From a phage, in the sequence record PZ000613.1: a stretch of 64,000 bases of DNA; one strand, written 5' to 3'. Both the position numbers and the translations under genes were made by a program. Below the pieces are notes generated by a model that did no database searches, was not told the DNA's origin, and was given only the letters and a program-made list of their open reading frames with translations. Of this stretch, positions 21,562-24,917 are shown piece after piece (positions within the stretch are counted from its first letter, which is position 1; each line of letters opens with the position of its first letter).

Positions 21562-21858
21562 ATGACTTTAGAAGTATATAAATTCCTTTTTGTAAGCTGT
21601 TTAACTATCAGCGTTATAGGGTTTATTGTTCTCAGAAACAAAGCAGCAAGCTGGGAGAGAATGTATAAATCTCTAGTCCGAGTGGATGAGATGTATAATG
21701 AGAAAGTTAAAGTAACACTCAACGATCTTATTATGCAAGTTGAAGACAGAAACAAACGTCTTCAGAACCTCAACCACGAGGTGTTACGCCTTGCTCGTGC
21801 TAATGAAGACTTGCGAGTGGCTATTGCTAAGCAGCAGGAGATTAACAGTGAAAGTTAA
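21562..21858 (+). CDS. membrane-anchored coiled-coil protein (99 aa)
   Basis: RBS AAAGGTGA; N-terminal transmembrane helix followed by charged helical region. Confidence 0.45.
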   Translation: MTLEVYKFLFVSCLTISVIGFIVLRNKAASWERMYKSLVRVDEMYNEKVKVTLNDLIMQVEDRNKRLQNLNHEVLRLARANEDLRVAIAKQQEINSES

Positions 21859-23331: not shown

Positions 23332-23336
23332 AGAGA

Positions 23337-23366
23337 GGCTGCCTTCGGGCGGCCTTTGTTGTTTTA
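23337..23366 (+). terminator. rho-independent terminator
   Basis: AGGCTGCC-TTCG-GGCGGCCT hairpin followed by TTGTTGTTTT. Confidence 0.55.
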
Positions 23367-24246: not shown

Positions 24247-24411
24247 ATGATCAAGTGGTTTAAACGTTTCTTCCATCTCCATGATTGGGAGACAATAAAA
24301 GAAATTCGTTTACACATATACAATGAGATCGGTCAAATAGAAGACACAGGTACTCGTTATATACTTCGATGTAAAACATGTGGTCATATCACCAAGCGAG
24401 ATATGATCTAA
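24247..24411 (+). CDS. small zinc-finger-like protein (54 aa)
   Basis: CKTCGH motif; starts 1 nt after the upstream stop. Confidence 0.35.
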   Translation: MIKWFKRFFHLHDWETIKEIRLHIYNEIGQIEDTGTRYILRCKTCGHITKRDMI

Positions 24412-24419
24412 ATAATTCT

Positions 24420-24495
24420 GCGCTCTTAGCTCAATGGATAGAGCAGTAGCCTTCTAAGCTATTGGTTACAGGTTCGAGTCCTGTAGGGCGCACCA
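24420..24495 (+). tRNA. tRNA-Arg (anticodon UCU), CCA encoded
   Basis: Cloverleaf read by eye: acceptor GCGCTCT/AGGGCGC, D-arm GCTC-AATGGAT-AGAGC, anticodon stem GTAGC/GCTAT with loop CTTCTAA (UCU), T-arm ACAGG-TTCGAGT-CCTGT, discriminator A plus CCA. Confidence 0.85.
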
Positions 24496-24635
24496 CATTT
24501 AGGGCTAGTATGGGTGCGGCACCAGAGTTAGTGTATCCCTGTTGAGGCAAGTGCTTTTATAACAGTGGGAATTACTTTCTTAGTGAGCTTCTGGTTCGAT
24601 TCCAGATAGTCCACCAAATCAAATAGGAGGTAGTT

Positions 24636-24917
24636 ATGAGTTGGGGTGGTGTAATATCCTTAATCTGTATCTTCCTTGTCTGCATAGCCCTTACAGGCTG
24701 CGTACAGAGCCGTCCTGATGGATGGTGTGCAGTAGCAGTGGAAGGTATTTGTGTTTCTCGCTGGCACCAAGGCGAGAAGGTTCCTTCTGGTGAAATTGAT
24801 ATGCGTTACAGTGGTATCTCATGTCTTAACGGTGCAGCAGTAGATGAGGAGACTAAAACCTTATCCAATGCTCAATGGTGTGGCGGTTCTGTAACAACAA
24901 CCGGTAAGGAGTGGTAA
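24636..24917 (+). CDS. lipoprotein (93 aa)
   Basis: Strong RBS AGGAGG; signal peptide ending in lipobox LTGC; several further Cys residues. Confidence 0.55.
   Translation: MSWGGVISLICIFLVCIALTGCVQSRPDGWCAVAVEGICVSRWHQGEKVPSGEIDMRYSGISCLNGAAVDEETKTLSNAQWCGGSVTTTGKEW

Follow-up and report, generated by a model that had tools for sequence, protein, structure and literature searches.

The stretch of DNA analysed here, 64,000 nucleotides of record PZ000613.1 and called the window throughout, belongs to a Kuravirus (Gordonclarkvirinae), a coli-podophage of the phiEco32/SU10 type. Directly behind the tRNA-Arg(UCU) gene of this phage, at 24501-24616 on the + strand, we find a conserved block which we propose to be a discrete gene for a tRNA-derived, non-decoding RNA of 115-116 nt. 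Judged from its sequence and by analogy, this RNA would be co-transcribed with tRNA-Arg, matured in a tRNA-like manner, and comparable to RNAC and RNAD of phage T4; we put the probability of this reading at roughly 0.5. Among 13 carriers compared, 112 of the 116 positions of the block are invariant, and it is unannotated in the carrier records listed among our matches.

The original prediction, made from the letters of the window alone, started from a canonical T arm at 24590-24606 (TCTGG-TTCGATT-CCAGA), followed by an acceptor-like strand TAGTCCA (24607-24613) and CCA (24614-24616), with AGGGCTA (24501-24507) as the complementary 5' strand and the whole module placed directly after tRNA-Arg. 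Inspection of the sequence bore out each of these points. The T arm (UCUGG-UUCGAUU-CCAGA in the RNA) has five Watson-Crick pairs and a consensus T loop, and is invariant in all carriers; the tRNA ends at 24495; and the acceptor strands form 6 bp (GGGCTA/TAGTCC), including one G.U, with A24501 mismatched opposite A24613. This arrangement of T arm, acceptor and CCA is beyond chance and the feature is real: a motif consisting of a 5-bp stem, TTCRANN, the complementary strand, 7-8 nt and CCA was matched, when both strands of the window were scanned, in tRNA-Arg and in the element only, while 200 dinucleotide shuffles contained a mean of 0.06 and a maximum of 1 per window. The second copy lies 95 nt from the sole tRNA of the window and on the same strand.

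Read as a cloverleaf, the element has recognisable counterparts of tRNA positions 1-26 and 44-76, with about 57 nt standing in for the 17-nt anticodon arm. All its parts are on the + strand. The invariant 5' strand of the acceptor, GGGCUA (24502-24507), pairs with 24607-24612 in the register that ARAGORN selects on the grafted construct described below, and G24502 is predicted to be position +1 and the ribonuclease P (RNase P) site. In the ARAGORN drawing, U8, A9 and a D-like arm follow (24509-24524), the latter built of the stem UGG (24511-24513)/CCA (24522-24524) and an 8-nt loop, GUGCGGCA, which has G24518 and G24519 at the G18/G19 position and contains the polymorphic site 24516. A long irregular hairpin of 57 nt (24525-24581), delimited by constrained folding, pair counts and the loop scan, replaces the anticodon arm; its helices are 24525-24527/24579-24581, 24530-24533/24573-24576, 24536-24543/24561-24569 and 24544-24548/24553-24557, capped by the tetraloop AAGU (24549-24552). 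The linker AGUGAGCU (24582-24589), single-stranded in the constrained fold and in the ARAGORN drawing, takes the variable-loop position before the T arm. The 3' strand of the acceptor, UAGUCC (24607-24612), is supported by the sequence, the ARAGORN drawing and the pair counts, and its U24610 forms a G3.U70 wobble with G24504. It is followed by A73 and the encoded CCA (24613-24616), the predicted mature 3' end according to the alignments and the same drawing. The earlier statement that neither a D arm nor an anticodon arm could be folded thus holds for the anticodon arm, as shown by the loop scan, and needs correcting for the D arm, since a D-like arm can be drawn.

The body of the element outside the long arm is tRNA-grade. 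When the long arm was exchanged for the 17-nt anticodon arm of the neighbouring tRNA-Arg, ARAGORN at its default threshold called a tRNA in 3 of 100 junction variants, compared with none of 300 constructs in which the halves of the body were shuffled. The register chosen places G24502 at +1 and reads G1-C72, G2-C71, G3.U70, C4-G69, U5-A68, A6-U67, G7.A66, U8, A9, A73 and CCA. The 3-bp D-like stem with its 8-nt GG loop was accepted by ARAGORN on the graft construct only, and A14 is absent in either register. Folding with the acceptor and the T arm enforced gives a four-way junction of -32.1 kcal/mol, made of the acceptor, a hairpin at the D position, the 57-nt arm, the 8-nt linker and the T arm, and the long arm leaves this junction exactly at the position of the anticodon stem.

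Nevertheless, the element is not a decoding tRNA. ARAGORN at default settings reports only tRNA-Arg and no tRNA at the element; in the intron-aware mode (-i), with introns of 0-100 and 0-3000 nt and the default threshold, the element is not called; and the calls obtained with relaxed thresholds overlap tRNA-Arg or are poorly paired. An intron-containing tRNA was rejected on the basis of this mode and of an exhaustive scan of internal deletions of 20-69 nt, in which none of all 2075 variants was called a tRNA by ARAGORN. A scan for 7-nt anticodon loops (Y32, U33, R37) gave no acceptable one outside the T arm, the sole weak loop of this type (24588-24594) requiring destruction of that arm. Searching 24300-24750 against Rfam, no tRNA match to the element was obtained at the gathering score or at E<=10. 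The lack of an acceptable call from ARAGORN in relaxed and intron-aware use therefore rules out a tRNA, not the feature. From the idea of a tRNA carrying an insertion the architecture survives, with 57 nt at the site of a 17-nt anticodon arm, and the spliceable or decoding tRNA does not.

It could still be argued that a decoding tRNA of unusual build, with an intron or an expanded anticodon arm, was missed by the predictors. Indeed, the same phage family has aberrant tRNA-Arg genes, in Bas94 and in a metagenomic contig, which ARAGORN misses; although these lack the D arm and carry 20 inserted nt, the Rfam tRNA model scores them at 33.4 and 31.7 bits, respectively. These D-armless genes serve at the same time as the positive control that makes such a tRNA extremely improbable here, since Rfam is silent on the element even at E<=10 though it detects them. 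The negative results of intron-aware ARAGORN and of the 2075 deletions, as well as the closure of the long arm in a 4-nt loop, speak in the same direction. To our knowledge, E. coli has no enzyme for short tRNA introns, which also counts against a decoding tRNA, and a group I intron would, as far as we know, need a longer insert.

Several further candidates were rejected. A transfer-messenger RNA (tmRNA) was excluded by the tmRNA mode of ARAGORN, which was negative also at relaxed thresholds. No known Rfam family was found for the element, and weak matches to YrlA and Plastid-ycf2 rest mainly or wholly on tRNA-Arg; that to YrlA (24440-24548) scores 14.1 bits against a gathering score of 69, draws mainly on tRNA-Arg and extends no further than the first third of the element. 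The topology of YrlA is also the opposite, with a Ro-binding terminal stem and an internal tRNA-like domain, whereas the ends of the element are the acceptor. An 11-codon open reading frame (ORF), MGAAPELVYPC, runs from the ATG at 24510 to the TGA at 24543-24545 and starts 5 nt after AGGG. Two of the four polymorphisms are non-synonymous in this frame, and all other positions, including all synonymous sites, are invariant; therefore the constraint is not at the peptide level, and a conserved micropeptide is improbable. An antisense target within the phage was dismissed because complementarity to the element in the window extends over at most 12 nt (E = 0.36), and a cis-regulatory leader of the lipoprotein gene because the downstream gene varies among carriers.

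Searching 50,697 phage records with blastn revealed full-length copies in 30, all of them Gordonclarkvirinae coliphages or Shigella phages and spread over the three genera Kuravirus, Suseptimavirus and Nieuwekanaalvirus. No copy falls below 97.4% identity, and the element is unannotated in every carrier record among the matches listed; the non-carrier matches were short stretches of T arm and acceptor at the 3' ends of tRNAs. The neighbouring lipoprotein region is present in about 97 records. When EP335, IME267, UKE3, TH38, YF01 and SR02 were compared with the window as the reference, the element was the best-conserved stretch of the locus, with an identity of 97-100% as opposed to 59-88% for the flanks. 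The corresponding values were 70-100% for tRNA-Arg, depending on the allele, 63-89% for the 19-nt spacer after CCA, 58-100% for the lipoprotein gene by segment, and 43-90% for the upstream ORF. The homology has sharp edges: the left one falls exactly at 24501 in YF01, KM01, Bas91 and TH42, and on the right EP335 diverges exactly past CCA, the high-identity block ending 0-20 nt past CCA.

The four variable sites (24516, 24525, 24549 and 24574) all show purine transitions. Seven haplotypes are formed, and three pairs of sites, one of them spaced by just 9 nt, show all four allele combinations; such violations of the four-gamete test suggest that a small number of free sites changed repeatedly. 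Assuming no recombination within the element, a minimum of six changes would have fallen on 4 of 116 sites, for which we estimate p ~0.005 if all sites were free. Position 24516 lies in the D loop and 24549 at the 5' end of the tetraloop; the remaining two changes convert the pair 24525:24581 from G.U to A-U and 24532:24574 from U-A to U.G. All four are therefore neutral for the cloverleaf (100% of cells paired, energy range 1.4 kcal/mol). G24525A, found in EP335 and UKE3, breaks a G-C pair of an alternative rod-like fold only, and the energy range of that rod is 6 kcal/mol. The cloverleaf, as modelled, is thus compatible with the variation data, not proven by them. With no known copy below 97.4% identity and no pair changed on both sides, covariation gives no proof.

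A number of observations weigh against a functional tRNA-like gene. The unconstrained minimum free energy fold of the window sequence is the rod just mentioned, at -37.7 kcal/mol and thus 5.6 kcal/mol better than the junction. The rod destroys the T arm by pairing its strands with the D region, an option opened by the two occurrences of CCAGA (24522-24526 and 24602-24606). The folding z-score is modest (-2.0 to -2.3), and compensatory base-pair changes number zero, there being no double changes, with shuffle controls equal to the observed values. The acceptor has 6 bp instead of 7, with a G.A or an A.A mismatch depending on the register, and U8-A14 and G20 are non-canonical. About two thirds of the relatives are devoid of the element, and no copy was found outside the roughly 30 phage records. 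The copies are also much younger than the tRNA-Arg alleles of the family, which are 75-88% identical, and near-identity can result from recent horizontal spread instead of constraint.

The search for copies elsewhere was negative in several settings. No copy came from pattern scans, exact and gapped, run three times on IMG/VR and once each on metagenome contigs and GTDB genomes, although exact matching could miss diverged ones; blastn against 5,426 complete E. coli genomes gave none either, and protein-anchored retrieval from IMG/VR and metagenomes yielded 15 related loci, none with the element. As a separate observation on the folding, the T-stem strand UCUGG (24590-24594) can have either the T arm or the D region as its partner.

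The genomic context ties the element to the tRNA gene. It always lies downstream of a tRNA-Arg(UCU) gene, represented by three different alleles, and the gene that follows it is of three kinds: in the window it codes for the lipoprotein, UKE3 and TH42 have an ORF of 46 codons in its place, and SR02 has one of 58 codons. With a tRNA-Arg gene always present and the downstream gene changing, the element belongs with the tRNA and not with the next gene. In YF01, KM01, Bas91 and TH42 another tRNA-Arg allele and another spacer, AUUUU(U)AAACA, precede it. In phiEco32, in phages of the MN03 and NJ01/KBNP1711 types, in XT18/XT73 and in Bas87, tRNA-Arg is followed directly by a ribosome-binding site and no element is present. 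The best empty-site comparator is Ptacy1532, where the 3' part of the tRNA is the same as in the window and the sequence is GCACCACAT|CAAATAGGAGG, which makes the indel a clean 121 nt between the near-repeats ACCACAT (24492-24498) and ACCAAAT (24613-24619). In its behaviour the module is an optional cassette that enters or leaves exactly between these repeats.

These empty sites bear on the suggestion, already part of the original prediction, that the module is a processing signal for the adjacent tRNA-Arg transcript. In such a case it would be a cis-acting, t-element-like determinant of processing or stability, recruiting RNase P and 3' nucleases to set the ends of tRNA-Arg or of the early mRNA, and the RNA itself would be a by-product. 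Its location within an early operon that is polycistronic, the lack of promoter- or terminator-like sites in the vicinity and the start of the next ribosome-binding site 9 nt past CCA would fit such a role, and t-elements of plant mitochondria are reported to direct mRNA end formation (PMC1920247). However, about two thirds of the relatives have tRNA-Arg in the same context without the element, the bare tRNA providing the same site and a near-identical downstream sequence, CCA-AAUCAAAUAGGAGG; the element therefore adds no new cleavage context. Moreover, a minihelix of acceptor and T stem would suffice for processing, which leaves the invariance of the 57-nt arm and of the D-like loop unexplained, and the downstream gene differs among carriers. 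We thus consider a mere processing signal unlikely.

The tRNA-Arg slot has attracted other insertions. In ECBP2, and in this phage only, an unrelated element of about 97 nt occupies the same place (1248-1344 of locus L012). It has no Rfam match and forms a long hairpin, closed by a 12-bp helix of GUCCC(U)AAGAUGC with GCAUCUUGGGGC and followed by UACCA, with z-scores of -5.0 to -5.8. It seems, then, that the slot after tRNA-Arg accepts RNA cassettes. The tRNA part of the locus varies as well. The aberrant tRNA-Arg(UCU) genes of Bas94 (610-688 of locus L033) and of the metagenome contig OERV01000030.1 (1091-1169 of locus L024), which occupy the tRNA slot, have the acceptor, the anticodon hairpin and the T arm in perfect form; the D arm is missing from its normal place, and the variable region carries an insertion of 20 nt that contains AAUUGG; their Rfam scores exceed the gathering score of 29, and ARAGORN misses both genes. 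A stem enclosing the anticodon hairpin reads CUUC/GAAG in Bas94 and CCGU/GCGG in L024, that is, with compensatory changes. In five metagenome loci (L018, L022, L023, L017 and L020) there is no tRNA-Arg within 1.2 kb upstream of the lipoprotein gene, and in the 330 nt viewed upstream of its start a protein-coding gene ends directly at the lipoprotein ribosome-binding site. In L018, L022 and L023 the sequence of this upstream gene looks like the C-terminus of a homing endonuclease.

As to the origin of the element, the last 28 nt match the 3' end of a T-even-type phage tRNA-Gln at 26 positions with one 1-nt gap (database E-value 9e-3; pairwise score 44, compared with 13.3 +/- 2.2 for shuffled sequences). 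This similarity suggests that the element derives from a genuine tRNA gene in which the anticodon arm was disrupted. The notion of a degenerate tRNA is thereby upheld as regards the likely origin and not as regards decay, the element being the best-conserved stretch of the locus.

The main rival reading, about which we are doubtful without dismissing it, is that the block is a young non-functional relic, a second and perhaps tRNA-Gln-like tRNA gene that was broken in the anticodon arm and hitch-hikes with homing endonucleases. Repair following endonuclease insertion in tRNA-Arg would co-convert the flanks, so that the block would look conserved because its copies are recent; RNase P may still cut such a remnant, to no purpose. 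The locus is indeed a hotspot of homing endonucleases, HNH genes lying inside or against tRNA-Arg in YF01 (locus L014, 341-870), KM01 (L032, 58-573), Bas91 (L029, 1-137), TH38 (L016, 22-545) and Ptacy1532 (L037, 160-685). The HNH insertions leave stubs of the old tRNA (5' stubs of 19-30 nt, or 3' stubs of 45 nt) and bring a new tRNA-Arg allele, and an endonuclease-like ORF is found at the lipoprotein junction in metagenomic relatives. The insertions in tRNA-Arg fall between the D loop and the anticodon loop (positions ~19-32), a region overlapping that in which the element is disrupted. Further points in favour of a relic are that the element differs by at most 2.6% while the tRNA-Arg alleles of the family differ by 12-25%, that tRNA and element form one high-identity island in EP335 and UKE3, that presence is patchy over three genera, and that the acceptor is weakened relative to the tRNA-Gln-like 3' half (U1-A72 to A.A, A4-U69 to G.U). 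TH38 and Ptacy1532, moreover, share the same endonuclease arrangement and differ in the element, and its gain or loss must be recent.

Other features of the same copies speak against a mere relic. The high-identity block ends at most 20 nt from CCA in every comparison, whereas the ends of independent conversion tracts should scatter. Variation is confined to four structure-neutral, homoplasic sites while 112 others were available, and tRNA features unrelated to decoding are intact in all 13 copies. Finally, the presence of endonuclease cassettes in carriers and non-carriers alike shows that the element is not just a component of one. Should the block be only a relic, the locus would still be a record of homing endonucleases directed at a phage tRNA gene and bringing along alleles to replace it. 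Regarding these cassettes themselves, the homologous HNH insertion site in the window lies inside tRNA-Arg at ~24438-24451. TH38 and Ptacy1532 retain a 5' stub of ~28-30 nt together with a 45-nt 3' stub of the old tRNA. Each HNH gene brings its own complete, divergent tRNA-Arg(TCT) allele, which parallels segB beside T4 tRNA-Arg, and in KM01 both the endonuclease ORF and the tRNA are unannotated.

If the block is a discrete RNA gene, as we propose, its maturation can be envisaged as follows. The element would be transcribed together with tRNA-Arg, presumably its upstream partner, within a long early polycistronic transcript. It keeps what E. coli RNase P reads, that is, a 6-bp acceptor stacked on a 5-bp T stem, an elbow of T loop and D loop, and a 3' RCCA, and a cut 5' of G24502 would at the same time free tRNA-Arg with a 6-nt trailer, as in the dimeric precursors of T4. 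The spacers in those precursors are short, and RNase P accepts a range of non-tRNA substrates (PMC11143913). Cleavage at the 3' side in the AU-rich AAAUCAAAUA, followed by trimming back to the encoded CCA, would then give a stable RNA of ~115 nt, a functional analogue of T4 RNAC/RNAD.

The acceptor raises the question of charging. In the register ending in the encoded ACCA it carries G1-C72, G2-C71, G3.U70 and A73 followed by CCA, all invariant in 13 of 13 copies. The bacterial alanine identity set has a core that includes G2-C71, G3.U70 and A73 and comprises no anticodon position (PMC9976931). Alanylation by the host alanyl-tRNA synthetase (AlaRS) is plausible, because the acceptor sequence has the major alanine identity set and this set needs no anticodon. 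Minor determinants of alanine identity are unmatched (C4-G69 and not G4-C69; C20 and not G20). In the alternative 7-bp register the wobble becomes G4.U69, and bacterial AlaRS makes no alanyl-tRNA-Thr from a tRNA-Thr with G4.U69 (PMC9976931). It is conceivable, though quite unlikely, that the product is an alanine-accepting tRNA mimic without an anticodon, resembling a free-standing tRNA-like domain of tmRNA, made early in infection by a virulent phage. Such an RNA, whether charged by host AlaRS or merely showing the elbow and the CCA of a tRNA, would work outside ordinary decoding. Possible roles would be competition for SmpB and stalled ribosomes, supply of an aminoacyl-tRNA-dependent transferase, or that of a decoy for host defence toxins that attack the acceptor ends of tRNAs, and the RNA would offer the first mechanistic explanation for RNAs of the T4 RNAC/RNAD type.

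The tRNA-Arg(UCU) gene (24420-24495, + strand, CCA encoded; found by ARAGORN, Rfam tRNA score 72.4 bits) is the sole tRNA in the 64 kb according to ARAGORN and Rfam, and 24496 is the first base past it. The spacer CAUUU(A) (24496-24501, + strand), defined by the alignments and flanks, would serve tRNA-Arg as its 3' trailer and the element as its 5' leader. Beyond the element, the Shine-Dalgarno sequence AGGAGG and the ATG of the lipoprotein gene (24636-24917) occupy 24625-24638 on the + strand, so that the ribosome-binding site of the next gene begins 9 nt past CCA. The segment 24380-24680 is 100% identical to Escherichia phage PGN6866 and 99% identical to SU10. In the paper on SU10 this region is assigned to a long early operon with sigma-70 promoters far upstream (PMC4281155), and we found no promoter- or terminator-like site in or beside the element. 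A strong terminator-like hairpin (10 pairs, UUCG loop, U-rich tail) lies at 23334-23357 (+) inside the early-gene block, ~1.1 kb upstream of tRNA-Arg, and no sigma-70-like promoter is predicted on the + strand in between. A motif of the phage sigma factor, AATGTATA, is present at 21660 (+).

Publications on phiEco32/SU10-like phages report a single tRNA and leave the element unmentioned (PMC9965538; PMC4281155), and our literature search found no published description of it. Several GenBank records of carriers, among them KM044272/NC_027395 (SU10), MT127620 (PGN6866), MW741821 and PP445229, omit even tRNA-Arg(TCT), the features under the tRNA-Arg match being 'none' or proteins only. A second RNA gene would thus be added for about a third of this phage group. 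The wider interest lies in the fact that non-decoding tRNA-like RNAs beside tRNA-Arg have been known in T4 since the 1970s, with roles still described as unknown in reviews and omics papers. A further example, independent and unrelated, in the same position in another phage family suggests that the arrangement is not an oddity of T4. Natural controls are at hand among well-characterised coliphages, as close relatives differ by the clean presence or absence of 121 nt, for instance TH38 and Ptacy1532. The BASEL collection offers pairs of the same kind, Bas90/Bas91 with the element and Bas86-88 without it, which makes the old question directly testable.

Among known systems, the t-elements of plant mitochondria resemble our element in being a tRNA-like module of acceptor and T arm that is reported to lie within a polycistronic transcript beside mRNA ends (PMC1920247). 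In our case, unlike that of t-elements, the processing site is already provided by a genuine tRNA, and conservation extends over all 116 nt instead of being limited to a minihelix. The ECBP2 element shares with that of the window its location right after the CCA of tRNA-Arg and before the ribosome-binding site, the strand, a structured character and an ACCA end; it differs in its unrelated sequence (the alignment is not significant), the absence of a T arm, and a tail of UACCA and not NCCA. The T-even-type tRNA-Gln of Jiaodavirus and Karamvirus, which are Klebsiella and Enterobacter phages, has the T arm, the 3' strand of the acceptor and CCA in common with the element, and the 5' strands (AGGGCTA and TGGACTA) match at 5 of 7 positions. 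The Gln anticodon arm, in turn, is missing from the element, the discriminator G73 is gone with the CCA register shifted, and the D region is dissimilar, so the sequence similarity would indicate at most ancestry.

The likeness to tmRNA concerns its tRNA-like domain, which also has a G3.U70 acceptor, A73, CCA, a T arm, no anticodon, and a long helix at the place of the anticodon stem. tmRNA is a substrate of RNase P and is charged by AlaRS. The element, on the other hand, has no mRNA-like domain, tag frame, resume codon or pseudoknots, measures 116 nt against ~360 nt, and possesses a D-like stem.

The closest parallel is provided by T4 RNAC (species 1, 139 nt) and RNAD (species 2, 119 nt), bona fide small RNAs whose roles are described as unknown (PMC3014915; PMC9697503). 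Like the element, they lie downstream of tRNA-Arg(UCU) on the same strand, fall in the size range of 115-140 nt and are non-decoding; the order in T4 is tRNA-Arg, a 1-nt spacer, RNAD, 6 nt and RNAC. RNAC has a canonical T arm, an acceptor-like terminal helix and long hairpins in lieu of the anticodon arm (z = -4.6), RNAD ends in ACCA as the element does, and the homing endonuclease gene segB adjoins tRNA-Arg of T4 in the way the HNH genes do in the family of our phage. Neither T4 RNA has an Rfam family. Sequence similarity to RNAC and RNAD is not significant, the fractions of shuffled sequences reaching the observed local alignment score being 0.13 and 0.23, respectively. The phages belong to different families, a podovirus of the Gordonclarkvirinae and a myovirus of the Straboviridae. 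Where RNAC has two long hairpins, the element shows a single D-like hairpin and a single long arm, and, unlike RNAC and RNAD, it combines an encoded CCA with a G3.U70 acceptor and is optional within its family. On this comparison the element is best regarded as an analogue of T4 RNAC and RNAD, not as a demonstrated homologue.

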